DNA from: a virus
Virus record (IMG/VR): IMGVR_UViG_3300019886_000004
Coordinates: 64,001 to 128,000 of that record
DNA: 64,000 nt
Reading direction: 5' to 3' (one strand)
Below are positions 10,201 through 39,544 of the stretch, piece by piece (within the stretch, counting starts at the first letter, position 1; every line of letters begins with the position of its first letter). The translations under genes and the position numbers were made by a program. The notes under the pieces were generated by a model. It was not told where the DNA came from. It ran no database searches and was given only the letters and a program-made list of their open reading frames with translations.

Positions 10201-13200
10201 ATAAAAAAAAGAAGAGAACTTTTAGGTAAATATAGTCAATATGTTCTAACAGACAAAGGTAAAGTTCAATTTGATACTCAGTGGGCAAGAATGAAAAGAA
10301 AATTGTCTAAAAATGAAATAACTCCTGAGAAATATGAACGTTGGTTGGAGGATAATACTGTAACCGAAAATACTCCAGCTTTCTGGGATGCAAAAAATGC
10401 AATCTTAAAGGATCTTAATGACCTGTATTTAGAAATGGGTGTTGAGAATAAGAAGGATGAAAATATTGGTAAACTCTACAAAGGTATGGAAGATATTACC
10501 AAGGCACATAGAGATTCTAATGGTATAATAAATGGATCAGAAATGCCTGATAAAGAATTAAAAGATGTTAAAAGTTTAGAAGAACAAATTGAAAAAGCTA
10601 AAGATGATTTAGCTAACATATTCGGTTTGACAAGACTTGAAAGAGTAAATATATCTAATCTAAAGAATCAAATTGATGAGATTGGATCTATGATGTATTT
10701 CGAACAAGATCCAGATAAAAGACAGAATCTAGTAAATTTAAAGGCTGATATTGAAGATCAAGTTGATGAAATAGAATCTAAGAAGAAAAATATTAATAAG
10801 AAACTATTGGATAAATATTTTCTTCTAATGAAAAAACTAGGTGAATTAGAAGAAGGTAATGTTACCAAGTATTATTTAGATGAATCACAAGAGAGATTAG
10901 AGCAAGAAACAGCTAAAGTAGATACTTCTAAAATGCCAGTTAAAATGATTATGAATGGTAGAACCTATCAAAAATCAGGTAATGAATGGTTGGAAATATC
11001 TGGAGGTAAAATAGAGAAGAGAGATATAGCTTTCGTAGAAAATATATTTAAAGAAAAAAAAGGAAATGTAAACTATCTTAACTCTGACTGGTATAAAACC
11101 AATCATGTAAAAAAGATGAAGTTTGTTAGAAATGCGGAATACATACCTGGACAGTATGATGTAGCTGCTGGAGATTGGCAAGAAGTAGAAGAACCTACGT
11201 ATGCATGGAAGCAAACAAGACCAAGGGATTCAAACTACATAAACGAAAATCAACCATCTTTTAAATATAAAACCAGGCAAATTAAAGACCAATATATAAA
11301 CAAGAATTATAGAGAAGATATTAATGGAGACTTGAGACCTAAAGTGAAAGGAGTTAAAGATGATAGATTTCTTAATAAGGATTATCAAAGACTTATTAAC
11401 TCTAATAGTTCTCAGGATACTGCCACAGCTAATATGTTAAAATATTTAACAGATACTTATTATAAAGCTCAAGAAGGTATTCCAAAAGGTCTTAGACCAG
11501 GATATGAATTACCTGGAATAAGAAGAACAGATACAGAAAGATTGATAGGTCAAAGTTTGAAGAAATCTAGTCAAGAAATGTTTGAATATCTTGGTCAGAT
11601 AGCTAGAAGTATTAAAGATAAAGCTGTAATTAATGAGCAAGATAAAGATATTTTATTTGGATACAATGATGACTTTAATGGAATAGTTCCAATTAAATTT
11701 CTAGGGGATATTGATTCTAAGGATCAAAGTATAGATTTACCCAAATCTATTTTAACCTTTGCATCTGAAATGTTAAAACGTGAGCAATTAGTTAAAAGTT
11801 TACCTTTTGCAAATGCAGTTAAAGATATTGCAAATAATTCAGATTATAGACCTGTTAAAACTAAGAAAGGTATAGTTGAATCTGTTAAGAGGAAATTTCT
11901 ACCAAAGAATACAGAAGTAGCTAAAAGGTCAGATACAAGTAATACTGCTTTGCAAATTAATGAAATAATAAAATCAGAAATATACGGGGAACAGATGAAA
12001 GATCAACCAGCTGCTAAATTAGTGAATAGTTCACTTAGATTAGGAGCGGGAGCAATGCTTGGTTTAAATTTTGTATCTTCTGTACAGAACTATGCTAATG
12101 CATTTACTCAATCTATCATTGAGACAGAGAGTAAAAATAAGAACTTTGATATGAAAGGTTTCTTTAAGGCTCAAAAGATTTATTATGCTCATGTGGATGA
12201 ACTTATGAGTGATCTAGGTAAGTACGGTAATAAATCTTATATTAACCAATTCTTTGATTACTTTGGTGGTATTAATTATAAAATATTTGGTAAAAATCAT
12301 AAGACATTGGCTCATAGCAAAGTAGGAGAATTTACCAAATCTTTATCGGTGCCTAATACTATAACTGAACATATGCTTAATTATCATATGGGTATAGCTA
12401 TAGCTTTGAAATATAGAGTATCTGATGGTAAAGGTAATATGGTGCCAATATTTGACGCGTTTACTAAAAAAGATGGTAAGCTAGTTCAAAAAGAAGGGTT
12501 TAATATAACAGAGGAAGAAAGAAAAGAACTTATAGCTAGACTTAATAGCTCTGCTAGAAGAATCAATGGTGAATATGGAGATAAAATATTAGCAGATAAA
12601 TATGTTTTAGGAAAACTTGTTTCATTCATGAATAGATATCTAGTGCCGTTTGTAGTAAAAAGGTATGGTGCTAGAAAATTTGATATTCAAGATGGTCAAC
12701 GTGATGAAGGCTATTGGAGATTATTTGGTAAAATTTTAATACAAGATATTAGAACTAAATCTGTTCCAATACTTGGACAATGGAAATATTATACAGCAGA
12801 AGAAAAACAAGCCATAATTAAATCAATGACTGAGCTTGGGTTTACTATCATGTTTGCTTTAATGATTCATGCTTTAGGAGGAGATGACAACAAACAAATT
12901 AAAGATAATAGTATTCTCACTAATAACCTAATATATGCATTAAAAGGTATACAACAGCAAAACGAGGCTTTTATGCCTGTGCCAGGTATAGGTTTTGATG
13001 ATCTTTTTAGAAAGATACAAAATCCTTTTCCAATACTTGGTAAAGTAAAAAATCTTGTTTCTTTAATTCAGGATGGCTCTCATACAGCTTGGTATGAAAT
13101 GGGATTGCCAGGAGTGGATGAAAAGGATGTGAAATATATGCAAAAGACGGGATGGCATAAGCCAGGAGATTTCAAAATGTTTGCAGATTTTCAAAAATTA

Positions 13201-13281
13201 ATAGGAGTACAGAAACTAGTAAATTACTTCTATCCAGATGAGGCATTAAAAGCACAAGAATCAATGTCAAGAATAAAATAA
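7279..13281 (+). CDS. Large (2000 aa) virion cargo/ejection protein with zincin-like metallopeptidase motif
   Basis: VLHEILHGLT...EEF motif, long helical/coiled-coil regions, hydrophobic C-terminal segment; lies directly after the vRNAP as in crAss-like phages. Confidence 0.7.
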   Translation: MNQCPNFSDPKYKYLENKLGELEAYKYWHQHGGDISHVLTNQDRLKLIDRSKELVKYVQGVYSHAAKENPELFLKEIADQLTSSKNEATTARKIAGNELSNIALQLRASENLTPKSINVTMKIIGALKQDKSNPSIVGPLQAKGLVGKRVAPLTFEIPVDPTNFNLMDQQIKATKVAQQINKQAGKEVVTTKVVNGNAAILVDPNIKSIIDKLDPSDFTTYKQYLVDNLYTSKDNPATTDLINNAAKLSRELGRDDLVNVARLIYKYLDKNPTLKTRMVDDIFEETGETGIKAYYNKGTNSITFGRSTMGQSTLEYESETVLHEILHGLTFQPWFKSKVDVPLSQEEKDFKHVVETYYSYFKGKKGAEGYAFTNPEEFLMGALFDKPFQDHLKELGGDTVKGSPFVQFLKDILKRFLALFGIKSKDEIVDKLDPEKIQSSMIEALSDYLGKMKKIDLFNGLKEEGRNYGLSFAITAQQDYLSESERLKAEREEREKMKASLGDNLREQLKKSIDKSILSIKSFGSNIRKRIPESQEGFKAIFKQLKKLEDPAYNLDQIDFFFDFTSEIQAIMNVAHEKIRKLQSDTTINDPDVKLKEYEDIVSAARNFDPILNEIQNIKIQLESLGYKASLVDLDDITLKRDRIESIYSMGVFPLVTDKFVDILSPSSKQAVEMSTTRIDELDKRIALANKNNNKSRVLQLEREKKTEQSKIDKEFTLSSDKVRDWLRGQMGDSNILQVWLMAGVSNSNPLVSGLSKYIRDNVGEAAPAVLELMNTMQSKLEDYESKTNRSRNNILEFNTPLIQTHKIINGKDEKGEYTYEDKRSLLHEFNGGHIQELQKFKRQLTDLYASKREIESTANPNEENLKFLTDRIKETKDKQRQFIRDYMEQQYTTEVHEALDMLHEDLGGYTAWDYMGPVLSRIEDTELAIDQENDPARLADLYNQLDGHNIEFSRLGSLYEKSPDSRELKVAEQIKKRRELLGKYSQYVLTDKGKVQFDTQWARMKRKLSKNEITPEKYERWLEDNTVTENTPAFWDAKNAILKDLNDLYLEMGVENKKDENIGKLYKGMEDITKAHRDSNGIINGSEMPDKELKDVKSLEEQIEKAKDDLANIFGLTRLERVNISNLKNQIDEIGSMMYFEQDPDKRQNLVNLKADIEDQVDEIESKKKNINKKLLDKYFLLMKKLGELEEGNVTKYYLDESQERLEQETAKVDTSKMPVKMIMNGRTYQKSGNEWLEISGGKIEKRDIAFVENIFKEKKGNVNYLNSDWYKTNHVKKMKFVRNAEYIPGQYDVAAGDWQEVEEPTYAWKQTRPRDSNYINENQPSFKYKTRQIKDQYINKNYREDINGDLRPKVKGVKDDRFLNKDYQRLINSNSSQDTATANMLKYLTDTYYKAQEGIPKGLRPGYELPGIRRTDTERLIGQSLKKSSQEMFEYLGQIARSIKDKAVINEQDKDILFGYNDDFNGIVPIKFLGDIDSKDQSIDLPKSILTFASEMLKREQLVKSLPFANAVKDIANNSDYRPVKTKKGIVESVKRKFLPKNTEVAKRSDTSNTALQINEIIKSEIYGEQMKDQPAAKLVNSSLRLGAGAMLGLNFVSSVQNYANAFTQSIIETESKNKNFDMKGFFKAQKIYYAHVDELMSDLGKYGNKSYINQFFDYFGGINYKIFGKNHKTLAHSKVGEFTKSLSVPNTITEHMLNYHMGIAIALKYRVSDGKGNMVPIFDAFTKKDGKLVQKEGFNITEEERKELIARLNSSARRINGEYGDKILADKYVLGKLVSFMNRYLVPFVVKRYGARKFDIQDGQRDEGYWRLFGKILIQDIRTKSVPILGQWKYYTAEEKQAIIKSMTELGFTIMFALMIHALGGDDNKQIKDNSILTNNLIYALKGIQQQNEAFMPVPGIGFDDLFRKIQNPFPILGKVKNLVSLIQDGSHTAWYEMGLPGVDEKDVKYMQKTGWHKPGDFKMFADFQKLIGVQKLVNYFYPDEALKAQESMSRIK

Positions 13282-23974: not shown

Positions 23975-24006
23975 CAAATATACGCATTTTTCATGAAATT
24001 ACCAAA
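23975..24006 (-). promoter_or_regulatory. Bacteroidetes sigma70-type promoter
   Basis: TTTG-N20-TATATTTG. Confidence 0.75.
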
Positions 24007-24015
24007 TTATTATTC

Positions 24016-24573
24016 TTAGACTTGCGTTATCTTCATTTCTTCATCAATATTTAAACTATATGTACTACATGTGTGTTTATAGTTATTTCGTCTATTTTTA
24101 AATGAAGACATTGATTGTAATCCTAGATTTTTAACACATTTAAGTATTATTGGCTGTTCAACATCAGAAATAATGAAATCAACAGAGCTATAATACATTA
24201 TATTACATATTGATTCTACCAGGTTTAAAACCTCTCTAAACATTTGTGTTGATTGTTCTGTGGTAATACTAATGGAATCTAACCCACTATGTATCATTGT
24301 ATAAGAATATATGTCATGAATTATAAGTTTTCCACAACAACTAGGATATTCTACTATGCTGAATCCCAAAATATTATATTCAGACTTAGTTAGTATAGAA
24401 AACGAAACAGGACCTTTGTTACCTATGGTTATCCTACTAATTGGACGAATCATACTATTAAATATATCATCCTCATCAGAATAAATCAAAGATTTTGATC
24501 TAGATACAAGTATTAAGTCTTTTATATTTAATATTTTACTAATATTATTCTTAAAGTCTAATATGCATCCCAT
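24016..24573 (-). CDS. 'CC'-motif GNAT-like protein (paralog 1, divergent)
   Basis: YPSCCGKLII...SFKNRRNN; similar to 25405, 42659, 44385. Confidence 0.5.
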   Translation of the reverse strand: MGCILDFKNNISKILNIKDLILVSRSKSLIYSDEDDIFNSMIRPISRITIGNKGPVSFSILTKSEYNILGFSIVEYPSCCGKLIIHDIYSYTMIHSGLDSISITTEQSTQMFREVLNLVESICNIMYYSSVDFIISDVEQPIILKCVKNLGLQSMSSFKNRRNNYKHTCSTYSLNIDEEMKITQV

Positions 24574-25424
24574 ACATCTGTAAGTTCTTTTTCCTTAATT
24601 AAGACTAGTATACCAAACTCATCACATATTTTACCAGCAAGTTCTTTATTACTGGAATTAATTGCCTCAACAATATCTATTGACATTTCATTAATCTTAT
24701 CCATTCCATGTTCATTATAATAGTCAAACATTTGATTGATTTGATTAAAAATGTACTCAACATATTCTCTATCTTCAACCCAGAAATTAGAAAGTGTTCT
24801 AGCTTCAAAACCCCTTGATTCACTCCATTCACACAACCTCATTTCTCCAGCCTTACCATATAGTTGTCTCCTTCTTTCATCGCTATCTAAAAATAGGCAA
24901 GGTATTGTCACAAAAGTATCAAAAACTTTCATTAAATCAATGGAATTATTTACATCAGCTCCTTCAAAGCTGAAATGAAGATGACCTCCGCACACCCTCA
25001 AATTAGTATCTAATAGATTACAAGAAGGATTCATTTCTCCATCCAACCAAGCATTATATGAAGGACTACATCCAGCCACCTTTGCTTCTGGATGCTCTAG
25101 TTGATCTTCTGTAAATTCTGCTGAAGGACAACAAGTTATTTTTAACTTTTCTTCCTTGGCATATTTACTTAATATGTAACTCTTAATATACTCAAGATTC
25201 TCCAAAAATTCCTGGCTACCATCTAATTTTACTGGCGGCACATTACATTCTTGTAATACACCATCATACTGTAAGCAACATCCCTTTCTAGGAAGTTGTT
25301 CTGGAAATTTCTTAGTTCCGCTATTAAAGGGTATTGCAGATATAAATTTTCCTTCATCATTAGTTAAAAATAGTTCAAAATCAGAACCTATTAGTACTGT
25401 TTCCTTATTTACTTTCATTTTCAT
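24558..25424 (-). CDS. phiEco32-like COOH-NH2 ligase type 2
   Basis: IGSDFELFL, DGVLQECN, AGCSPSYNAW, GGHLHF, RRQLYGKAGEMR, GFEARTLSNFW. Confidence 0.88.
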   Translation of the reverse strand: MKMKVNKETVLIGSDFELFLTNDEGKFISAIPFNSGTKKFPEQLPRKGCCLQYDGVLQECNVPPVKLDGSQEFLENLEYIKSYILSKYAKEEKLKITCCPSAEFTEDQLEHPEAKVAGCSPSYNAWLDGEMNPSCNLLDTNLRVCGGHLHFSFEGADVNNSIDLMKVFDTFVTIPCLFLDSDERRRQLYGKAGEMRLCEWSESRGFEARTLSNFWVEDREYVEYIFNQINQMFDYYNEHGMDKINEMSIDIVEAINSSNKELAGKICDEFGILVLIKEKELTDVWDAY

Positions 25425-25914
25425 TCAGATTTAATAGCCAAATATTTAAAGTATTTCCAGTTTTTGCATTAATAAACTCAAGGCTTTTTAACCAACCTTG
25501 TTTTTCAAATATCTTAACTTGATATTCATTATTTTTCTTATCTGCACCTTGCAATACACCATATCCATAATAGGAAGAAAAGTCAGACATGAACTTTGTT
25601 GCAATAGAACCAATTCCTTTATTTCTAAAGTTCTTAGATACAAGAAGATTGCTTCCAACAATTATACCACAACAATTATACATATCTTTTAAATCAAAAG
25701 TAACTATAGTTAATTTATTATAGTCTACTTTAAATATTAAGTTACATTGACCTTTTCCTATTTCTTCAGGATTATATTGATTAAAGAATTCTTCCAGGGT
25801 ATACTGTACCCCGGAAGAATTTTCGTAAACCTTTATTTCAATCTGTTGTTCCTTACATCCTATAATTTTAGATATATCTGTTCTAAACTTGGACTGAATT
25901 TCTTTCGTTTTCAT
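25405..25914 (-). CDS. GNAT-family acetyltransferase with CC motif (paralog 2)
   Basis: VSKNFRNKGIGS acetyl-CoA-binding motif A; YNCCGII; IFEKQGW. Confidence 0.7.
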   Translation of the reverse strand: MKTKEIQSKFRTDISKIIGCKEQQIEIKVYENSSGVQYTLEEFFNQYNPEEIGKGQCNLIFKVDYNKLTIVTFDLKDMYNCCGIIVGSNLLVSKNFRNKGIGSIATKFMSDFSSYYGYGVLQGADKKNNEYQVKIFEKQGWLKSLEFINAKTGNTLNIWLLNLNENESK

Positions 25915-26611
25915 GTTTGTAATTTGGAGACTTTTTTATTAAGTTTGTAATAAGATATCTTGCTAGCAAATTATAGTCTTCCTCTGGATGAAATTGACAA
26001 GCGGCTATCGGAAGAGTTTTATGTTGAAATACTTCTGCAATGTCATCCTTTGCAGTATATGCAATTAATTCTAGTGGCTCAGGTAACTCATCCTTTCTAA
26101 CACCTTGATGGTGAAGTGAACAACATTTCATTTTTTTACTTTTAGAATTCTTTAATAAAGATGTTTCTAATATAGTAAATTTCGGAGTGAATGTAAGATC
26201 ATTAACTAATTCTCCTCTATTTTCGGAATCACTATATCCATGCGTTCCAAGGTCTATATTTTGTATTAGTTTGCCACCAAAATGTACATTAATCATTTGG
26301 AAACCTAAACAGATTCCGAATACTGGTATTCCCGCATCAATATATTTAGGTAAATTAACTTTAGCAAAATGTTCTTTGAATGGATCTGGATCACTATTAA
26401 AATATCCTGGAACAGCCTCATAATTACTTGGTAAAGTATCCTTACCTCCTGGCATTATAATTAAATCTAAATCATTATCAATACCCATTTTTGGAGTTAG
26501 AATTCTAACATCTCCAAACACTTTGAAGAAGTGTAAATAAGATTTTGCTACACCAAAAGATAATTCTCCTTGACTCCAACCCGGTATTCCAATTTTAGGA
26601 ACGTATTTCAT
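25883..26611 (-). CDS. Class I glutamine amidotransferase / gamma-glutamyl hydrolase (peptidase C26)
   Basis: PGGKD, GICLGFQ, SLHHQG, QFHPE. Confidence 0.88.
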   Translation of the reverse strand: MKYVPKIGIPGWSQGELSFGVAKSYLHFFKVFGDVRILTPKMGIDNDLDLIIMPGGKDTLPSNYEAVPGYFNSDPDPFKEHFAKVNLPKYIDAGIPVFGICLGFQMINVHFGGKLIQNIDLGTHGYSDSENRGELVNDLTFTPKFTILETSLLKNSKSKKMKCCSLHHQGVRKDELPEPLELIAYTAKDDIAEVFQHKTLPIAACQFHPEEDYNLLARYLITNLIKKSPNYKHENERNSVQV

Positions 26612-26629
26612 ATTAATTCATTTAAAATT

Positions 26630-27289
26630 TTATAATTCATTATTAAAAAACTTCACTAAAGTCTTTTTAGTCCAATCCATTACTGGTTCAAATTGACTAG
26701 ATTTATGCATCATTTCCGGATGGAATTGAAACCCGATTGCACTAATTTTAGGAAAATAAATCGACTCAATTTCTTTAAAATTCCAAGGAAGTAAGATTGA
26801 TTTATCCTTTGGACCTAAATATCTATTAGACCTTCTCTTACTACTCCAAGCTAATACTTTATAGTTCCTTGGATCCTTAATTGTATAAGGATTGATCATT
26901 TGATGATGTATACTATTTGTATTTACAGAAACACCATCAAAAGTTGTTATTGTATGGCTGCTTCCACTATGACCACTAACGTCTTGAATCAACTTACCAC
27001 CCGCCATTGCACAAATAAATTGAATACCGCGACATATACCCAGCATCTTCTTACCAAGTTTTATACCTTCCATAAAGTCTTCTTTTTCTATCTTCTCCTT
27101 TTGTGGACTAGTCCAGGTCCTGTCACTTGCTTCTTCTCCATAGGTGCTTGGATCTACATCAGCTCCTCCCCCAAAAATTATTACATCTGCCTCTTCTATA
27201 TTTCTAGTATGTACAAATCCTAAATCCTGTAAGAAATTTCCATTATTTGCTCCACACGCAGACGTGAAATACTTATTTAATTTCTCCAT
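26630..27289 (-). CDS. Second class I glutamine amidotransferase / peptidase C26
   Basis: GGGADVDP, GICRGIQ, NSIHHQ, QFHPE. Confidence 0.88.
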   Translation of the reverse strand: MEKLNKYFTSACGANNGNFLQDLGFVHTRNIEEADVIIFGGGADVDPSTYGEEASDRTWTSPQKEKIEKEDFMEGIKLGKKMLGICRGIQFICAMAGGKLIQDVSGHSGSSHTITTFDGVSVNTNSIHHQMINPYTIKDPRNYKVLAWSSKRRSNRYLGPKDKSILLPWNFKEIESIYFPKISAIGFQFHPEMMHKSSQFEPVMDWTKKTLVKFFNNEL

Positions 27290-28094
27290 AAAGTCTTATT
27301 AAGTCGTTTCCTTCTATTCTTTTTTGAAAGTCTGAAATCTTTAAATTTGAATTAAATCTTGTTTGAAATAGTTTTCCAAGATTTCCATCTTTTTGGTTTT
27401 TAATCAACACATCAAACTCTTGCTTACTTAACAATTTACTAATGAAAGTTTCTCTATTTTCAACCCTAAGTAAGGAGAACGTTTCGTTAAATCCATGATT
27501 TCCTGCAAAATAATAGTGAGCCATTTGAAGTAATTCAAAGTCTTCAATCATTTTTGCATTGATACCATTTATAGCTTTTAAATTGACAAATCTACAAAAG
27601 TTCTTAACTACTTGATCATAATGGTCAGAAAATAAATATCTAACCATGCAATAAGCACAATAATTTCTTAATTGATTTTCATGAGAATTTTCTTTTATTT
27701 TTATTTTAAATGCTTCCCATTTATCTTCAATTATAAAACTACCCATGTCTAATTTCAATTCGTTCTCATTTTGCCATCCTTTCACTGATGTAAAATTCGT
27801 TCCAATCTCACTAGAAGTTTTATTACCTAAGTATTTTACTTCGCAAAAGAAATTAGATGTTAAGTCTATCCAATAATTAAAGAAACTTTTATTTCTGGCT
27901 TGCCTTATTAACCAGTCACTTGGATAATAAAATTTAATCTTTCCATTCTTAACCTTGTATTTATCATTGTTTATATCAAAAGTCATTTTAATTATTTGAG
28001 AACAATGTGTTACCATTTTCTTAATTACGATTTGATCGTCATCATCGTAAATTATGAAAAATCCATAACTATTTCTATTATTAATTGTCATCAT
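27273..28094 (-). CDS. Hypothetical protein in ligase cluster
   Basis: 273-aa ORF overlapping both neighbours. Confidence 0.6.
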   Translation of the reverse strand: MMTINNRNSYGFFIIYDDDDQIVIKKMVTHCSQIIKMTFDINNDKYKVKNGKIKFYYPSDWLIRQARNKSFFNYWIDLTSNFFCEVKYLGNKTSSEIGTNFTSVKGWQNENELKLDMGSFIIEDKWEAFKIKIKENSHENQLRNYCAYCMVRYLFSDHYDQVVKNFCRFVNLKAINGINAKMIEDFELLQMAHYYFAGNHGFNETFSLLRVENRETFISKLLSKQEFDVLIKNQKDGNLGKLFQTRFNSNLKISDFQKRIEGNDLIRLYGEIK

Positions 28095-29659
28095 TTGATT
28101 TCCATATTATTGTGCTTAAAATTAAAATTAGGATCATCATCAAACCACTTCGATTCAACAGTTTTGTAATTTTTATAAGATCCGTCTTTATTAAAAAATG
28201 TTTCATACCTCATCTTGTAATACTCCATTATATAATTTGTGTACTTTTCTCCTAAATTTTCAAGTAATACCTCTCTTAACGTAATGGACTTTGCAGTTAA
28301 GCAAGTTTTCACATTCTCAGCATATTTAAGAATGGAAGCACAAGTCAACATCCAAATTAATATTTTAGTTGAATTCACACTTCCTTCAGCGCAACGAAAT
28401 TCTAGAGTTCCAATTTTATTAAAATATAAATTTAGAAAATTAACCCAAAAATATCGAGATTCTTTTTGCCACTTCTCACCAGTTATAGCATGATAAACTG
28501 TTTTAGTAGAATAGATATTCTTTAACCACTTATCATAAAACATTTTTTTACCATCTACAACAACACTGGTTCTTATCAATTCCGGATCTCCATGTATAGC
28601 AGCTAAACTTTTTCCATTATTTAACCAAGTATATATTTTATTGAATTCATTGACAACACATTCATGGAATTTTTCCTCTGAATTTTGTTTGAAGATGAGA
28701 TCATATTTTACATCAAGATCACCTAGTGGTTTACAGTATATTTTACCATCTGATTTTATACTATTAAATCTACTATATGGAAAATATTTAACCATTTCAC
28801 CTTGAAGTAAATAACCTAATCTATACATTGATAAAGTAAATAATTTATCTTTTCTGACTTTTCCGAAGTGGAAATGCACTGAACAATAATTATTTACTTC
28901 ACACCTTTTGGTTAGTTCCTTGCAGAACTTTTTAATTACTTCTATACCCTTTGCACCACTCATCGGCATGGTTACCATCTCGATTCCCTCTCCATTATCA
29001 CTCCTTAAAGATCCGTCCTTTAAAGCTTTTATCCCGTACTTATTTCTTATTCTTCTAGGAATAAAACCATTTATGACTTCAGCTTCCATTCCAAAACTAT
29101 AATCACCTACAAACTTAGCTAATCTCTTAGAATCAGCTGATACTTTAATTTCTAGTTTTGCATACACTTCTTCTAACTGTTTCTTTCTTTCAGGATCAGC
29201 TTCTAAGTTATAACTCTTAGATCTCTCAACATTTGGAATATGTTTCTTATTAAACCATTCTTTTATATCTTTATCAGTTATAAAAGACTTTTCATAAAAT
29301 ATTCCATCATAAATAGATTCAATGAATGAAAGCTTTTCTGCTAGTTCTTCATTTAATATATATATAAAGGAACCTATTCTTTTATCCTTAGCTGTCACGT
29401 ATAAATCATTATCGCAAAACCAACCCTCTTCCCCATTCTCATTTATAATACCCTTAATTAATGCAGTATTTGCTTTCAGCACATATTTTTTAGAATAGTT
29501 ATCATAAATTATTTTATCAGTGGATGTAATTCTATACCATTGATCGTCTTCCATTTTAAAACAAGCCTCATTTTCCTTGTAATACTTATCAAGTATTTTA
29601 TGAGCGCTATCTTTTGGTATTAGATTACCTAAATAATCCTTTACAAGTTTCTTGCTCAT
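28091..29659 (-). CDS. Putative amidoligase (Amidoligase_2 / glutamine-synthetase-like fold)
   Basis: FGMEAEV, KDGSL, GIEMVT, CSVHFHFG, RYFWVN, TLEFR. Confidence 0.8.
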   Translation of the reverse strand: MSKKLVKDYLGNLIPKDSAHKILDKYYKENEACFKMEDDQWYRITSTDKIIYDNYSKKYVLKANTALIKGIINENGEEGWFCDNDLYVTAKDKRIGSFIYILNEELAEKLSFIESIYDGIFYEKSFITDKDIKEWFNKKHIPNVERSKSYNLEADPERKKQLEEVYAKLEIKVSADSKRLAKFVGDYSFGMEAEVINGFIPRRIRNKYGIKALKDGSLRSDNGEGIEMVTMPMSGAKGIEVIKKFCKELTKRCEVNNYCSVHFHFGKVRKDKLFTLSMYRLGYLLQGEMVKYFPYSRFNSIKSDGKIYCKPLGDLDVKYDLIFKQNSEEKFHECVVNEFNKIYTWLNNGKSLAAIHGDPELIRTSVVVDGKKMFYDKWLKNIYSTKTVYHAITGEKWQKESRYFWVNFLNLYFNKIGTLEFRCAEGSVNSTKILIWMLTCASILKYAENVKTCLTAKSITLREVLLENLGEKYTNYIMEYYKMRYETFFNKDGSYKNYKTVESKWFDDDPNFNFKHNNMEIK

Positions 29660-29673
29660 TGATTTTAATTTAA

Positions 29674-32136
29674 TTATTGTAGTATCTTACTGATATACAT
29701 TATACTTCCTGCTAAAGATACATTTAATTTATTAAATCTTTCAGTCCTTAAATTTGTCTCAGTCTTATCCATTCTGCCTTTGATTTCTTTAACTGATTCA
29801 AGTAACTCTTCTAATTCGGATAGAAAAGATGACTCATAATATTCAGCATCTAATACTTCTGCTTCTGGTTCTACTACAATCTCTTTGGAATTTTCTCTTA
29901 CACATTCATTTTCACTAATCTGTAAGTCACCACAATCTCTCATAAAATTATGCCATTCTCTATATGTAGAATGTGCTTTTGCAGAAAGATCTTTTGGATC
30001 AGACTCAAGTGCATATAATAGTTCACTTTTACTTATTCTTTCTACAGTATTTAAAGATAGTAAAACCGCCTCATAGAAATCATATAATTCTTTATCTGAA
30101 TTATTAACAACCCATGAAGTTTTTAAGTCATCTAATATCTCTTCTTTAGCCTCATGAATGTCATTTGCAAAATTAGGACTCTTATAAAGAATATTACAAC
30201 ACTTTATACTATTTATTATATCATCTTCTGTAAATATATTCTGATTCTGTTCATGTATTTGTATCTTTTCCTTAGTAGTTAAATCAGTACTTATGTGCAT
30301 ATTGTGATTTGTCATATTGGATATGTCTTCATCTTTTACTTTTGTTTTAATCAATGAGGTTATTTTCTCCATATCCTTTAGGAACTGCTTACCACTAAAC
30401 ATACTTACTTCAGCTTCTTTTCTTAGATCTTTAAGCATTACTTTACTTACAACAAGGTAATTTAAACCTATTCTCATAATTAATTCAAAGAAATATTTCT
30501 TTAATGAATCACTAGTATTCACTCTCCATAAATCTCTTCTAGTAATCGTATAATAGTAATTAGGATTGTCAGATTCTTCAGTCTTAAACTTATCTATTAA
30601 CCAAGCTCTTGTTGTAACTTCAGATTCAATAGAAGTTAAATCATCATTATCAGCATCCACAGAGACTTCTTTCTTTCTAAATCCTATATTATCACATATT
30701 ACTTTTTTAGTGATTTTTGTCCATTTACATCTAAATATTAATTTAAATTCTTCATCAGATAAAAACGGGGAAAAGCTAAGAGTATCTCCTCTTTTCTTAA
30801 GAGAAGAAGTATAATGATTATCTAATATCCAACCTTCTTCTTCATCTATAAGAGTTAATACCGGATAACTAAAAAACTCTACAAATTCAGATACACGAAT
30901 AGATTTAAACTTATCAAGACTAAATTTATCATGTTGGTCTTTAACTCTTTCAAAAACAGTATCATATGCTTTCTCAGATAAACATTTATAGCCACAAATA
31001 AAGAACATTGGTTCCATGTTAAGTTTTACTGCTTCCAGTTCACTTTTCATTTTACCAATATCAGTTATAAAGTTTTTACCTTCCAAAGGATGACCATTTC
31101 TGTAATACCTTTCATTTATAGTGTACACTTTATTACCTCTATTGTCATGGTTTTTACTTTCATTTGGTCTATTCTTTATAAGTATAACTTCATCTTTTTT
31201 GGATGTCATTTCTATAAATGACTCTCCTCCTTGATTCTGCCATGTTTCATAGTCTGTATTGTAGTGTTTTCCTTTTTTATAACCTATTCTATTTCCTATC
31301 GGGTATGTCACTATAGGTTTAAGAGGTTTTCTATCAACTATCTTATCATAAGTAATTTTACCTTCTACTATCTTGTATAAAAAGTTAGGTTTGAAATATT
31401 TAAGTTCATTTTGTGCTGCTCCTATTGCAAGTAATGGTTCTTCCATTGATGATATATACATTTGATCCGGAGCAATATTCCAAAGATATAATGGACGATC
31501 TGGATCTTTATATATCATCAATGTATTTTTTTCCAGTGGATGAAAGAATGCTAACGTTGCCCATCCATCATAAAGCTCCAGCGCTTCACGATAATTCTCT
31601 TCACCCAGTTTAACCATAGCTTTAGCCAACATTTGAGTGTCAGAATTGGTATTAGTTTTAAATTCTATATCCCATCTGTTAGCTAATAGTTCTGTATTAG
31701 ATAAGGTTCCATTCATTGCAAGAATTAAGTCATAGTCTTCTTTTTCTGTGTCATTTTCATAAATACCAAAAGGATGAGCTAATTCTTTTGAATATCTTAA
31801 CCCAGAACTTGCCTTTCTAGCATGTGCAACAATGGTGAAATTATCATCTTCTGGAGTTATAATTAAAGGATTTTTTTGTATAAATTTCATTACTTTTTCT
31901 GTATCCTTAATTATTTTATTGTTTACTGCCCATCCAGTACTATCTTCACCTCTTTCTTGATTATACATCATAATCATCTTTATCTTGTCTGGGTCAGCAG
32001 GTTTCGAACCTGAATAAGCCGTGATTCCGCAGCTTAATATACTTCGATCTATATTTAATCCAAATTTCTTTGAAATCAAAGAAAATAAGGAGTTTAAAAT
32101 CCATATTAAAACCATTACTAACATTAAGATTTCCAT
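29674..32136 (-). CDS. Class II (Ntn) glutamine amidotransferase with N-terminal hydrophobic extension and long C-terminal region
   Basis: CGI at residue 36, RGEDSTG, AHARKAS, AHPF, NGTL, SDT motifs. Confidence 0.82.
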   Translation of the reverse strand: MEILMLVMVLIWILNSLFSLISKKFGLNIDRSILSCGITAYSGSKPADPDKIKMIMMYNQERGEDSTGWAVNNKIIKDTEKVMKFIQKNPLIITPEDDNFTIVAHARKASSGLRYSKELAHPFGIYENDTEKEDYDLILAMNGTLSNTELLANRWDIEFKTNTNSDTQMLAKAMVKLGEENYREALELYDGWATLAFFHPLEKNTLMIYKDPDRPLYLWNIAPDQMYISSMEEPLLAIGAAQNELKYFKPNFLYKIVEGKITYDKIVDRKPLKPIVTYPIGNRIGYKKGKHYNTDYETWQNQGGESFIEMTSKKDEVILIKNRPNESKNHDNRGNKVYTINERYYRNGHPLEGKNFITDIGKMKSELEAVKLNMEPMFFICGYKCLSEKAYDTVFERVKDQHDKFSLDKFKSIRVSEFVEFFSYPVLTLIDEEEGWILDNHYTSSLKKRGDTLSFSPFLSDEEFKLIFRCKWTKITKKVICDNIGFRKKEVSVDADNDDLTSIESEVTTRAWLIDKFKTEESDNPNYYYTITRRDLWRVNTSDSLKKYFFELIMRIGLNYLVVSKVMLKDLRKEAEVSMFSGKQFLKDMEKITSLIKTKVKDEDISNMTNHNMHISTDLTTKEKIQIHEQNQNIFTEDDIINSIKCCNILYKSPNFANDIHEAKEEILDDLKTSWVVNNSDKELYDFYEAVLLSLNTVERISKSELLYALESDPKDLSAKAHSTYREWHNFMRDCGDLQISENECVRENSKEIVVEPEAEVLDAEYYESSFLSELEELLESVKEIKGRMDKTETNLRTERFNKLNVSLAGSIMYISKILQ

Positions 32137-32156
32137 ATCTTTTCTAGTTTTTTTTA

Positions 32157-32879
32157 TTAAATTGTCTCTGCTAATTGAGCTGTTTCCTGTTTTTTATAAT
32201 CTTTATAATTACATATACCAGAATAGTTATGTATATTACTTTGATTAGTATAATCTAAATACTTCTGCCTATAATCTAATATTCCATTCTCTATATCTTT
32301 TACTATTTCAGCTGACTTTTTTAAATACATTTGATCATGTGGAGAAATGAACTTTTCAGGTTTATCAAAATATTTAACAATACTTTCATCACCTTCATAT
32401 TTAAATCCTAATCGTAGAAACATGAAAAATGCACTTATAAGATATGGAATCTCTGTCCATTTTCTATCAAATGTCAAGATAATGTGAAATTTTTCTTCGC
32501 ATAACTCAGCAATTGATAAGTTAAAATTATTTTTTCTTTCTATTTTATTTAGTAAAGATAAAATAGAGTCAACTTGTTGTTGAGTAATGGTTTCCTTCAC
32601 ATGGGTTATCCTTTGTGATAATAGAATAGCAAGTGTGACATTATCCCTATCTAAAATACCTTTATCTTCGCCAACATGCCAACTAAAACCATACTGACTA
32701 ATAACATTATTTCCGGTATATTTAACCCAAAATACGTCACTAAAATAATCTTTACATTTACAAAACGGAGTCATTGTTTCTCCACTTTCCTTGTTAATTA
32801 AGGCAAATTTTACTTCAGTTTGACCATGACCACTCTCAATTAAATGAAATTTTGCACTAACATTATCTATTATTTTCAT
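32157..32879 (-). CDS. Hypothetical protein in ligase cluster
   Basis: 240-aa ORF, CKCKDYFSD motif. Confidence 0.6.
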   Translation of the reverse strand: MKIIDNVSAKFHLIESGHGQTEVKFALINKESGETMTPFCKCKDYFSDVFWVKYTGNNVISQYGFSWHVGEDKGILDRDNVTLAILLSQRITHVKETITQQQVDSILSLLNKIERKNNFNLSIAELCEEKFHIILTFDRKWTEIPYLISAFFMFLRLGFKYEGDESIVKYFDKPEKFISPHDQMYLKKSAEIVKDIENGILDYRQKYLDYTNQSNIHNYSGICNYKDYKKQETAQLAETI

Positions 32880-33766
32880 AAAGAATATTTACGCTGTATA
32901 ATTTTGGGTAACTCTTCAGTATATTTTTTTAAAGTTCCTTCACCAAAAGATGGGGCAGAACAAGACTCTATTAATATATATCTCGCCTTCTTATCTTTAC
33001 TTTCTTTAACGGAGGTACATTTAATATCAAATCCTAAAACATCAGCACCTAGAGCTTTTACTGCCTTCTTACAATCCTCTACCATCTCATTCCAATTCTC
33101 TGGTTTATTAAATTTTGGATTGGTTTCTACAAACCAGCTACAATTATCATCATGTCTTTGAAAACGATCTTCCTTTGGAGTATTTTCCTTAAGCATTTTT
33201 CTGCAAGTGTAGAAATACCCTTCCTCTGTTACATGAATTCTATACTCAACAGAATAATTTTTGTATTCTTCAACAATATAATTTTCCAAAGATTTTGTCT
33301 TTTCTTTTAAAAATACATCTAGTTGTTCTTTAGTCTTTACTAGAGTATTTCCAACTCCTCTACTTCCCCATCTATTTTTAATAATAAGCCAAGAATCTTT
33401 ATCCTTGATAAAATCTAAATTTGCTAGGAATTTATCCCATGATATTTTATCAGTAGTTGCTTTAGCTAAGTGAATCCAAGGTGCATGTTTAACTTCAGAT
33501 CTATCAAACGCTTCTTTCATTAGTTTTTTATCAGCACTATTCTTTATAGATTCTACACTATTAATTTCAAACTCAAAATCACTATTAGTTGTAGATCCAT
33601 GTCTATAAACTGCTTTCACACCTTTTATTAGTATGGAATTTCTTAATGGTGATATACTTGGATGTCTTGAAAGAATCCTTAAATAAAAATGTGTAGGTTT
33701 CTTAATAGACTTAATTTCTTTCTTTGCAGTTTTTGCTAACTTTTTTTCTTTAATAGTGTTGTTCAT
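32876..33766 (-). CDS. ATP-grasp peptide/amide ligase
   Basis: ADKKLM, IIKNRWGSRGVG, VEEY, EYRIHV, GFDI, LIESCSAPS. Confidence 0.82.
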   Translation of the reverse strand: MNNTIKEKKLAKTAKKEIKSIKKPTHFYLRILSRHPSISPLRNSILIKGVKAVYRHGSTTNSDFEFEINSVESIKNSADKKLMKEAFDRSEVKHAPWIHLAKATTDKISWDKFLANLDFIKDKDSWLIIKNRWGSRGVGNTLVKTKEQLDVFLKEKTKSLENYIVEEYKNYSVEYRIHVTEEGYFYTCRKMLKENTPKEDRFQRHDDNCSWFVETNPKFNKPENWNEMVEDCKKAVKALGADVLGFDIKCTSVKESKDKKARYILIESCSAPSFGEGTLKKYTEELPKIIQRKYSL

Positions 33767-34172
33767 TTTCTACTTTTTTTGTTTTTTCAATATTATTAAG
33801 TAATGATACCCAATCTCCTGATTCAACTAAATGACTTTCATTCACCTTTCCAGCATATGGAAATATTTTGTAATAATGTTCATCTATTTTTATATCATCT
33901 TCATAAAAATTAGAAGATATTTCCATTCTATACACACAATCAAACACCTCTTGGTTTATCTCAAATAGATCCACTACTATACTTTTACTTCTATCTGAAT
34001 CTTTTATACCTGGATATTGACCAAGTATATACATTTCATATCCAAAAAGTTTTATCGTCTTTTTATAGTGCATTGAATCCTTACCAAAAGATTGACACAT
34101 TCTTATATAATTATACATAGGTCTTCTTAGGGATCCATAGAATGCACATTTGATCATTTTATTGTCCATCAT
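33750..34172 (-). CDS. Gamma-glutamylcyclotransferase (GGCT/AIG2-like)
   Basis: FYGSLRR...N, LGQYPG, RME, SGDW. Confidence 0.85.
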   Translation of the reverse strand: MMDNKMIKCAFYGSLRRPMYNYIRMCQSFGKDSMHYKKTIKLFGYEMYILGQYPGIKDSDRSKSIVVDLFEINQEVFDCVYRMEISSNFYEDDIKIDEHYYKIFPYAGKVNESHLVESGDWVSLLNNIEKTKKVENEQHY

Positions 34173-34509
34173 AAATTTCTTTTATTTCTCCACTTTCTGT
34201 ATATTTATATATATTAGAAAGTATTTTATAAGTATGTGGAAATACCGTTTCTCTGGTACCATCATTCCATATCATGTAAAGCTTGTCTTTTTCATTTGGA
34301 TTTACAAACATATATTTACATAATATTTCTTTTTTTTCTTTTTTGGTGTACCACACGTGGTATATGTAATCCTGAAAAGCCTGCATCATTTCAGCATTAA
34401 GTTCTTCAGAAGTCATATTCTGCACATCATCTATTATGTCTAGATTTTCTATGTACTCACCATAACCATCAAATACACATAGAAGTACTTTCTGTTTTTC
34501 ACATATCAT
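34159..34509 (-). CDS. Hypothetical protein
   Basis: 116-aa ORF coupled to primase and GGCT. Confidence 0.6.
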   Translation of the reverse strand: MICEKQKVLLCVFDGYGEYIENLDIIDDVQNMTSEELNAEMMQAFQDYIYHVWYTKKEKKEILCKYMFVNPNEKDKLYMIWNDGTRETVFPHTYKILSNIYKYTESGEIKEIYDGQ

Positions 34510-35492
34510 TTCTCATTTATTTTCTTATTTATCAGCTCACTATATAGCAATCTTAGCTTCTCCAGTGGAAAAGCCTTGTTGTTATCAGCTTGATCTTTTT
34601 TATATTTCTGATGAACATAGGGTATACCATACACTTTCTCATATCTTCTCATAGCTTTTAATCCAGCTTCATCATTATCTAACATACTTAATACAAACTC
34701 ATATTTTGATTTTAACCAGTCTATTCTATCTTTAGGTATTAAAGTATTCTCTGAAGATGGAGCGACATATTCGCAACTAAGTTTTATAACATCCATTGCA
34801 CATATATCTTTTAGTCCAGAAATAATTAAACATATATTATATTTTTGTTTTAGTTGCTCAGAACCTATTAAATAACTTGTGTCTATGTTTATATACTTTA
34901 TCTTTGGTAAATTTGGTTGATATAACTGGTAAATTCCTTTCTCATTACTAAAAAATCCATATATACGTCCTCTAAATTCAAATGATTCTTCTCCTTTTTT
35001 TATGTTATATTCTGGAACTTTTCTTATCTGAAATTTATTTAACGTTGTTAAGTCTATCTTGGATGTATCCCAAAAATCTAAGTCTTCACTTTTAAAGTAG
35101 TCAGTTACTATAGTATATTCAGGTTTAGAGACACTGCGAAACACTACGTCTTCCTCGTAATCACAACCTGATGATAAAAAAGTTTCATAGTCTCTTATTA
35201 TCATACCAATTGATTGACCTTCTGTTTTATTATAATGAAAGGCTACAAACCTTATTATATTTCCTCCTTGTCCTTGAGAAAAATCCCTCCAAAAATACTT
35301 TTCATTTTTATAAAAAAAGCAAAGTGATGGATTGGAATCTCTATTAACCACAGATTTCATCTTTATTATCCGACCATCAAATGGTTGACTTATTTTGTTG
35401 CCAGTTAAGTTTTTGTAGTAATGTTTATAGACCCAGCTCTCAGGAACATCAGATATATCACCAATAATATCACTTACGTCATATGCTACCAT
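34506..35492 (-). CDS. dnaG: DNA primase (TOPRIM)
   Basis: DSNPSLCF...WRDFSQGQGGN N-domain; SGLKD, PSSE, DNDEAG, KDQAD. Confidence 0.8.
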   Translation of the reverse strand: MVAYDVSDIIGDISDVPESWVYKHYYKNLTGNKISQPFDGRIIKMKSVVNRDSNPSLCFFYKNEKYFWRDFSQGQGGNIIRFVAFHYNKTEGQSIGMIIRDYETFLSSGCDYEEDVVFRSVSKPEYTIVTDYFKSEDLDFWDTSKIDLTTLNKFQIRKVPEYNIKKGEESFEFRGRIYGFFSNEKGIYQLYQPNLPKIKYINIDTSYLIGSEQLKQKYNICLIISGLKDICAMDVIKLSCEYVAPSSENTLIPKDRIDWLKSKYEFVLSMLDNDEAGLKAMRRYEKVYGIPYVHQKYKKDQADNNKAFPLEKLRLLYSELINKKINEK

Positions 35493-35504
35493 ATTTATTT
35501 AATT

Positions 35505-35529
35505 AAAAAGGCTCCAAATAGGAGCCTTT
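35505..35529 (-). terminator. Intrinsic terminator
   Basis: AAAGGCTCC-aaata-GGAGCCTTT. Confidence 0.7.
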
Positions 35530-39494: not shown

Positions 39495-39544
39495 CCTTTT
39501 TTATTACAAAGCTACGAATAAAAAATGACATAACCAAATATTTT

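Follow-up and report, generated by a model that had tools for sequence, protein, structure and literature searches.

We analyzed a 64,000-nt stretch of viral DNA (hereafter, the window), which corresponds to bases 64001-128000 of the 147,916-bp IMG/VR virus record IMGVR_UViG_3300019886_000004, rated complete. The minus strand of the window carries, between 34172 and 24016, a cassette of 11 open reading frames (ORFs) encoding a GGACT/AIG2-like gamma-glutamyl cyclotransferase (GGCT), an ATP-grasp ligase, an Ntn glutamine amidotransferase, an Amidoligase_2 ligase, two class I glutamine amidotransferase (GATase)/Peptidase_C26 (C26) enzymes, a COOH-NH2 ligase type 2, two GNAT-like proteins and two proteins without an assigned family. 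Neighbouring ORFs share 4-32 nt or lie no more than 20 nt apart, in an unbroken run that continues from a primase-like gene (34506-35492). An earlier note on this DNA had listed the same enzymes as a contiguous, mostly overlapping minus-strand set; the ORF coordinates agree with it exactly, as do the domain matches, and the Pfam assignments it had proposed were recovered (PF14395, PF12224, PF07722, GATase_6 and PF06094). The cassette comprises the following features:

33750-34172, minus strand: GGACT/AIG2-like gamma-glutamyl cyclotransferase, 140 amino acids (aa) (PF06094, E = 1.4e-10)
32876-33766, minus strand: ATP-grasp ligase, 296 aa (PHROG 2599, 2.5e-17; Pfam match of just 1.7e-3)
32157-32879, minus strand: 240-aa protein from a large uncatalogued family (unmatched in Pfam, PHROG and NCBIfam)
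29674-32136, minus strand: Ntn (class II) glutamine amidotransferase, 820 aa (GATase_6, 8.7e-12)
32032-32136, minus strand: hydrophobic leader of the Ntn enzyme, 35 residues, preceding the catalytic Cys36 (score of 2.62 in a 19-residue Kyte-Doolittle window)
28091-29659, minus strand: Amidoligase_2, a carboxylate-amine ligase resembling glutamine synthetase (GS), 522 aa (PF12224, 1.4e-7; PHROG 2443, 1e-22)
27273-28094, minus strand: 273-aa protein (no Pfam or PHROG family)
26630-27289, minus strand: class I GATase/Peptidase_C26 copy a, 219 aa (PF07722, 9.5e-17)
25883-26611, minus strand: class I GATase/Peptidase_C26 copy b, 242 aa (PF07722, 4e-26)
25405-25914, minus strand: GNAT-fold protein, 169 aa (ESM Atlas score 0.96, TM 0.63-0.69, every match a GNAT)
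24558-25424, minus strand: COOH-NH2 ligase type 2, 288 aa (PF14395, 4.2e-10, above the gathering score; PHROG 3815, 5e-52)
24016-24573, minus strand: GNAT-like protein, 185 aa (Atlas structural matches all GNAT, TM ~0.6, model pLDDT 0.51)

A 2000-aa ORF (7279-13281) matches exclusively crAss-like records, some of whose matching proteins are annotated as RNA-polymerase-associated, and the synteny of the primase, ATPase and cassette genes is common to the window, the uncultured phage cr108_1 (MT774385) and Cellulophaga phage phi14:2 (NC_021806). Because of these matches and this replication-gene synteny, the crAss-like label given to the phage in the earlier note stands as a sequence-based classification. 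Among GenBank phages, no close DNA relatives were found.

The family profile of the Ntn enzyme matches PurF (1e-21) and also GlmS and AsnB. The GATase domain occupies residues ~36-270 and carries the invariant motif residues C36, R62, G63, H105, R107, N142, G143 and D166; residues 270-480 are conserved within this family only, and residues 480-820 have no counterpart, not even in the related IMG/VR locus L003, with alignment occupancy past 480 mostly below 0.4. The invariant Cys36 lies behind the 35-residue leader and has no start codon directly before it. Since Ntn enzymes need a free N-terminal Cys, the leader-bearing forms would have to be processed to be active; a short propeptide is removed in this manner by Bacillus PurF. 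Leaders of 23-43 aa, hydrophobic and then basic, precede the catalytic Cys in 24 of 62 homologues, and the leader suggests, judging from its sequence, a membrane-bound precursor. The adjoining amidoligase scores 32 bits against PF12224, for which the cut-off is 22, and its metal- and phosphate-binding residues are invariant (E192, E194, D215, E227, H262, R402, E420 and R422).

Both C26 proteins retain the catalytic triad (Cys86, His190 and Glu192 in copy a; Cys101, His208 and Glu210 in copy b). Their nearest NCBIfam models are TrpG, PabA, GuaA subunits and gamma-glutamyl-CDP-amidate hydrolase, with PuuD lower and all of them far under the cut-offs, and the two proteins resemble ammonia-donating subunits (TrpG, PabA and GuaA) at least as much as PuuD. 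The COOH-NH2 ligase likewise retains a set of invariant residues (D15, E17, E59, R143, H148, R185, E207 and R209) and has homologues in 316 GenBank phage records, the best match being that of the gut crAss-like phage cr108_1. In six related loci of the gut crAss-like type (L031, L032, L042, L052, L066 and L067), the gene for this ligase is split into parts of ~150 aa and ~124 aa by a 273-295-aa ORF of family f47 (for example, at ~13.3-15.2 kb of L031), which looks like a mobile intron or homing-endonuclease insertion.

The gene for the 169-aa protein lies between those of C26 copy b and the COOH-NH2 ligase. Its Pfam match to Acetyltransf_7 reaches just E = 0.019, but the predicted structure combines the GNAT fold with an intact coenzyme A (CoA) loop of the R/Q-x-x-G-x-G/A type, which here follows R-x-x-G-x-G and reads RNKGIG; the model-based assignment as a GNAT, already made in the earlier note, is thus upheld. 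Relatives of this protein were found in 4 loci. The 185-aa protein, termed GNAT-like in that note, can be called so by predicted fold only and on weaker evidence, namely a TM of ~0.6 for a low-pLDDT model and a profile link through a relative: hhalign gave a probability of 74% for its match to a Cys-Cys-Gly GNAT adjoining the COOH-NH2 ligase in locus L035, and one of 96% for the match of that GNAT to the 169-aa family. Its CoA loop is degenerate. A Cys-Cys-Gly motif occurs at the equivalent place in the 169-aa and 185-aa proteins, and a positional equivalent of the 185-aa protein in L003 has the motif as well.

The family profile of the ATP-grasp enzyme matches PurK, PurT and Ddl in the PDB, and the nearest NCBIfam match is Ddl (3e-6). 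RimK, after which the PHROG family is named, was rejected as an identity for this enzyme: it is absent from the PDB matches of the profile, and the name comes from the PHROG label only. Residues K130, E166, E174, R176, H178, D247 and E267 are invariant. Glu267 of the Mg-binding E-x-N motif is retained, as are the other invariant residues. The Asn of that motif falls, by our reading, at position 269 (window 32962-32964), where 58 of 66 relatives have Asn and six, the window protein and five others, have Cys; Cys269 may reflect either an unusual active site or reduced activity. Among GenBank phages, this ATP-grasp subfamily was found only in cr108_1, phi14:2 and a Leptolyngbya phage. The GGACT protein retains the YGSL motif (residues 12-15) and the conserved Glu84. 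Catalytic residues, proposed in the earlier note as a check on its reading, are therefore retained in the GGACT protein, both C26 proteins, the Ntn enzyme and both GS-like ligases, the departure being position 269 of the ATP-grasp enzyme. The three ligases named in that note are all present, but they represent two folds rather than three, ATP-grasp and, twice, a fold like that of GS and glutamate-cysteine ligase (GCS).

Searching with the ATP-grasp alignment retrieved 76 IMG/VR loci, on contigs mostly up to ~100 kb and in a few cases of 117-197 kb, and all ORFs of these loci were clustered into families. The ATP-grasp family is represented in 77 loci, Ntn in 69, Amidoligase_2 in 67, COOH-NH2 ligase in 65, primase in 58, C26 in 55 and GGCT in 36. 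A cassette with the same core recurs in ~66 distinct crAss-like contigs, downstream of the primase gene wherever one is in range, and the co-conservation across phages that the earlier note had called for is thereby borne out. The usual layout is primase, GGCT, ATP-grasp, gene x, C26, (C26), COOH-NH2 ligase, Ntn and amidoligase, followed by a gene for uracil-DNA glycosylase (UDG) or for an unnamed 220-550-aa family.

Adjacency was counted among 66 non-redundant loci, with denominators that differ per pair. The Ntn gene is directly followed by the amidoligase gene in 57 of 58 loci. C26 and COOH-NH2 ligase genes adjoin in 33 of 47 loci and lie within two genes of each other in 41 of 47, and none of 44 complete loci has a C26 gene without a COOH-NH2 ligase gene; in 19 of 31 loci, the GGCT gene directly neighbours the ATP-grasp gene. 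How the pairs are ordered varies by locus, the window and L003 placing a block of C26, C26, GNAT and COOH-NH2 ligase after the amidoligase. Because the adjacency within pairs is kept while their order permutes, the cassette fits a division into three functional pairs, two of which would join an amidotransferase to an ATP-dependent carboxylate ligase. In the replication module of many crAss-like phages of Bacteroidota, the cassette is a regular element.

We lean slightly towards the view, to which we give somewhat better than an even chance, that these three two-gene modules build and trim an amide-linked structure, either gamma-glutamyl or carboxamide. In the first module, the Ntn amidotransferase and Amidoligase_2 would form a glutamine-dependent unit for amidation or ligation of a carboxylate, with the amidoligase activating the carboxylate at the expense of ATP and the Ntn enzyme either delivering glutamine-derived ammonia or cleaving a gamma-glutamyl amide. 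The second module, consisting of the C26 enzyme or enzymes and the COOH-NH2 ligase, could follow the same logic. In the third, the ATP-grasp ligase would add an amino acid, probably of the glutamate type, and the GGACT protein would later remove the gamma-glutamyl group as 5-oxoproline. The Cys-Cys-Gly GNAT-like proteins and the 240-aa family are best viewed as potential accessory components, and the modules would jointly make and trim a small amide-linked structure on an acceptor. Thus, the write/erase system suggested in the earlier note would be recast as three two-gene modules, two of which look like glutamine-dependent amidation units rather than erasers; overall, that note's interpretation is partly supported, and its underlying observation is confirmed.

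Several points weigh against the modular reading and against a cell-wall acceptor. The cassette contains no substrate-defining domain (no Mur-ligase, transpeptidase or lipid-binding domain), and its accessory proteins are uncharacterised; ten accessory families from other crAss-like cassettes have no Pfam match. Leaderless Ntn homologues, which begin Met-Cys, make up 38 of the 62, and the phage 7-11 enzyme begins in the same manner; membrane tethering is therefore not universal. The ATP-grasp enzyme of the window departs from the consensus at position 269, and the C26 enzymes could be gamma-glutamyl hydrolases instead of ammonia donors. Profile searches recovered no PDB relatives of the COOH-NH2 ligase or the amidoligase and, since neither has a solved relative, their GS/GCS-like fold rests on the Pfam description and on Iyer et al. 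(2009), as cited in later papers. Finally, wall-hydrolase neighbours of the cassette were seen in just two lineages, and the cell-wall idea in the literature is a prediction.

By its gene content, the window cassette is a Crassvirales version, enlarged, of the phiEco32-type amidoligase cassette, a known kind whose role has stood as a prediction since 2009. Iyer, Abhiman, Burroughs and Aravind (Mol Biosyst, 2009, as cited in later papers) predicted the five-core-family cassette from sequence, and its carriers include phiEco32, 7-11, LUZ24, PaP3, tf, UFV-P2, CW02 and RIO-1. It was termed a "peptidoglycan modification cassette" in the papers on RIO-1 and PSA-HP1 (PMC3890496, PMC5498523), and a role in the cell wall has been published as a prediction (PMC5498523, PMC10580990); a 2024 paper gives the cell-wall idea by citation only (PMC11318856), and a 2023 paper states that the functions "remain to be explored" (PMC10580990). 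In agreement with the earlier note, which had described the product as undetermined, we found no paper that reports it. Known from many podophages, the cassette is carried by hundreds of phages, including LUZ24-like phages of Pseudomonas aeruginosa and relatives and phiEco32-like coliphages.

The likeness to the phiEco32-like set that the earlier note had pointed out holds for all five core families: COOH-NH2 ligase type 2 (PF14395), Amidoligase_2 (PF12224), class II amidotransferase, ATP-grasp and GGCT. As in UFV-P2 and 7-11, with which the window was compared, the phage-borne genes are co-directional and lie beside a primase or primase-helicase gene; the Ntn gene adjoins the amidoligase gene, and ATP-grasp and GGCT belong to the same co-directional block near replication genes. 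The differences are as follows. The Ntn gene precedes the amidoligase gene in the window, whereas the order is reversed in UFV-P2 and 7-11, and one or two C26 genes accompany the COOH-NH2 ligase in crAss-type cassettes but none does in those two phages. Further additions in the window are the 240-aa and 273-aa proteins, which have no detectable homology to the unknown proteins of podophage cassettes, a pair of GNAT-like proteins with Cys-Cys-Gly and, on the Ntn enzyme, a hydrophobic leader and a tail of 340 residues.

Within Crassvirales, cassettes had already been annotated in cr108_1 and phi14:2 (g037-g041). These resemble that of the window in following a primase gene, in having Ntn before the amidoligase and in the sequences of the ATP-grasp and COOH-NH2 ligases (38-41% identity). 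They are smaller, however, comprising 5-7 genes that run from ATP-grasp through (C26), COOH-NH2 ligase and Ntn to the amidoligase, then UDG, whereas the window has C26, C26, GNAT and COOH-NH2 ligase after the amidoligase, an arrangement that only L003 matches gene for gene. The minimal five-gene version is that of phi14:2, a cultured crAss-like phage. New here are the survey across crAss-like phages, the three-pair logic, the Ntn leader, the large partner family of the 240-aa protein, the link between the Cys-Cys-Gly GNATs and the recognition of phi14:2 as a cultured minimal carrier.

What the modules would act on is a separate question, on which the window's own copy adds no direct evidence. 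Our leading guess, a tentative one that is more probably wrong than right, is that the acceptor is a precursor of peptidoglycan or of the envelope on the cytoplasmic side of the membrane. The guess is prompted by the Ntn leader, the Ddl-like affinities of the ATP-grasp enzyme, the wall-hydrolase neighbours (in two unrelated phage lineages, the cassette is closely preceded, on its upstream side, by a gene for a lytic transglycosylase or an endolysin) and a parallel with two systems of stem-peptide amidation, MurT/GatD and AsnB1/LtsA. In each of these, a glutamine amidotransferase, of class I in GatD and of the Ntn class in AsnB/LtsA, works with an ATP-dependent carboxylate-activating enzyme, and both systems act on the lipid-linked stem peptide at the membrane. 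The window holds one pair of each amidotransferase class. This is an analogy rather than membership: the window ligases are GS/GCS-like, not of the Mur-ligase or asparagine-synthetase type, and the sequence relation is limited to the amidotransferase domains.

In its most specific form, the analogy would make both amidotransferase-ligase pairs non-homologous analogues of MurT/GatD and AsnB/LtsA that amidate free carboxylates on the host lipid-linked stem peptide, with the Ntn enzyme as a membrane-anchored, self-releasing zymogen and the ATP-grasp/GGCT pair and Cys-Cys-Gly GNATs adding and trimming a side branch. Such a detailed scheme is quite improbable as it stands; if true, it would mean that a large share of crAss-like phages, and many podophages, chemically rewrite the host cell wall during infection.

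The same enzymes could instead make a soluble small metabolite, such as a gamma-glutamyl peptide, glutathione-like or amidated, or a conjugate of the gamma-glutamyl-amine (polyamine) type, with a possible use during infection in redox balance, nucleotide metabolism, DNA packaging or counter-defence; we take this alternative seriously while considering it unlikely. A GCS-like ligase together with an ATP-grasp ligase mirrors GshA and GshB of glutathione synthesis, and GGCT and C26 enzymes are of the gamma-glutamyl-cycle or Puu type. Similarly, a GS-like ligase with a C26 enzyme recalls PuuA/PuuD, and ATP-grasp with GGCT recalls BtrJ/BtrG of butirosin synthesis. The cassette also lies among genes of replication and nucleotide metabolism (primase and UDG; ribonucleotide reductase in cr108_1), and neither a tag protein nor an envelope-specific domain was found in it. 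By contrast, the hydrophobic leader on many Ntn enzymes would be unexpected for a purely soluble pathway, the cassette has no exporter and no thiol-specific or polyamine-specific enzyme, and the NCBIfam scores for PuuD and related models are far under the cut-offs.

The 240-aa protein belongs to a family with 2071 cluster representatives at E <= 1e-3. Because Cys42 is invariant and Lys43, Asp44, Arg156 and His217 are nearly so, the family would seem to comprise thiol-using enzymes. Its gene lies within ~2.5 kb of a COOH-NH2 ligase gene in four of four sampled contigs long enough to judge. No PDB relative of the family was detected by sequence, and the AlphaFold2 (AF2) model of the window protein (pLDDT 78) gave no significant Foldseek match. 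In the VIA comparison, the top 15 rows are all GS, glutamate-cysteine ligase (GCL), PafA or Dop, with Z of 4.0-5.5, under the noise guide of the tool, and 136-178 residues aligned; the best rows, to PafA/Dop and GS/GCL, reach Z 5.5 over 168-178 residues. The protein thus possibly has a fold like that of GS and the Pup ligases. However, the family has no sequence-profile match to these enzymes, and its Cys-Lys-Asp, Arg and His residues differ from the Glu-rich metal site that marks GS-type ligases.

These structural rows bear on protein tagging, which the earlier note had included among its options. In a Pup-like or RimK-like system, the ligases would mark host or phage proteins with glutamate or a peptide, which GGCT and C26 would take off again. 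GS-fold ligases include PafA and Dop, the top structural rows of the 240-aa protein are Dop and PafA, and the PHROG family of the ATP-grasp enzyme is named after RimK. Peptide tags were also considered by Iyer et al. (2009), as cited in PMC10580990. Against this, 78 loci were scanned for small ORFs, within and near the cassette, that could encode a tag protein, and no conserved one with a C-terminal Gln or Glu was found. RimK is missing from the PDB matches of the ATP-grasp profile, and the 240-aa family has no sequence relation to PafA/Dop, the Z being just 5.5. We therefore give little credence to tagging of proteins.

Some members of the 240-aa family are tandem two-copy fusions of 526-559 aa (P0094, P0116, P0141, P0147 and P0149). 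In an unrelated 51-kb phage contig, an SLT lytic-transglycosylase gene lies directly upstream of a 240-aa-family gene that is accompanied by a COOH-NH2 ligase cassette (L087, 6438-6995; L088, 93-650), and L087 carries three 240-aa-family paralogues together with a YcaO gene.

In the window, the cassette appears to be resident in the replication transcription unit, rather than inserted into the replication module as the earlier note had described it. The following neighbouring features are relevant:

35507-35529, minus strand: perfect 9-bp palindromic hairpin followed by a T-run, in the 57-nt gap ahead of the primase gene, after the upstream gene
34506-35492, minus strand: primase-like (Toprim) gene (weak Toprim_2 match; 4-nt overlap with the next gene)
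34159-34509, minus strand: 116-aa protein between the primase gene and GGACT (no significant family match)
23975-24006, minus strand: Bacteroidota-type promoter match TTTG-N20-TAnnTTTG, immediately past the last cassette gene (pattern search)

The GC content (0.28-0.31) and GC skew of the cassette are those of its flanks. The Bacteroidota promoter pattern has 14 matches in the window versus 5.3 expected; the closest one upstream of the cassette on the minus strand lies at 39507-39538, an additional match (24459-24490) falls within the 185-aa gene, and the pattern search found no host-type promoter match between the cassette and the upstream replication genes. Scans for sigma-70 promoters and terminators within the cluster gave nothing above shuffled controls. 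The hairpin is a possible terminator or attenuator heading the primase-to-cassette block. It is this matching composition, the spacing of the promoter pattern and the hairpin upstream of the primase gene that make the cassette look resident. A recent insertion was ruled out by the flank-like GC content and skew, the conserved position in related loci and the lack of an intervening host-type promoter match.

The position in the replication module is also what speaks for an action on nucleotides, in which the cassette would modify nucleotides or DNA, or amidate an NAD-type carboxylate, and so evade restriction or an NAD-depleting defence. Furthermore, PRPP-synthetase-like and NAMPT- or PncB-like genes lie near the cassette in two unrelated phages, Salmonella phage 7-11 (L080, 999-3562) and Leptolyngbya phage Lbo-JY46 (L084, 1-3964), a few kb upstream of the cassette or adjoining it; presumably, they resemble the phage gene pairs for NAD reconstitution. 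Yet these NAD-salvage neighbours were seen in two phages only and not in the crAss-like loci, and no ligase of these families is known to act on nucleic acids. The complete 148-kb genome encodes no thymidylate-synthase-like hydroxymethylase and no tRNA-guanine transglycosylase (TGT)/DpdA, and no hallmark DNA-hypermodification genes were found that would fit the nucleotide tagging raised in the earlier note; the known hypermodification routes were rejected because the genome has no Thymidylat_synt and no TGT match. A comparison of 10 cassette proteins with the PADLOC models of known anti-phage defence systems yielded no match either. An action on nucleotides or NAD is accordingly very improbable.

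The equivalent of the Toprim gene is annotated as DNA primase in cr108_1 and phi14:2, and homologues of this family in 58 related loci lie mostly immediately upstream of the cassette. For the 116-aa protein, the 78 loci yielded no relative. Its C-terminus, Asp-Gly-Gln (DGQ), is reminiscent of the Gly-Gly-Gln end of Pup; as no related locus has a counterpart, the resemblance is probably due to chance.

The 273-aa protein, encoded between the amidoligase and C26 copy a, has six homologues and a positional equivalent in L003. It has no conserved acidic residues. Its AF2 model (pLDDT 81) gave no fold assignment: there was no Foldseek match, the best VIA Z is 5.6, and the few rows of GS or guanido-kinase fold are too weak for use. 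Comparisons with hhalign and hmmsearch connected the 240-aa and 273-aa proteins neither with each other nor with the COOH-NH2 ligase, the amidoligase, gut-crAss families f13 and f48 or the unknown proteins of UFV-P2 and 7-11. A 97%-identical copy of the 273-aa protein is encoded on a 3.2-kb ENA metagenome contig, which indicates that a near-identical phage exists in another sample.

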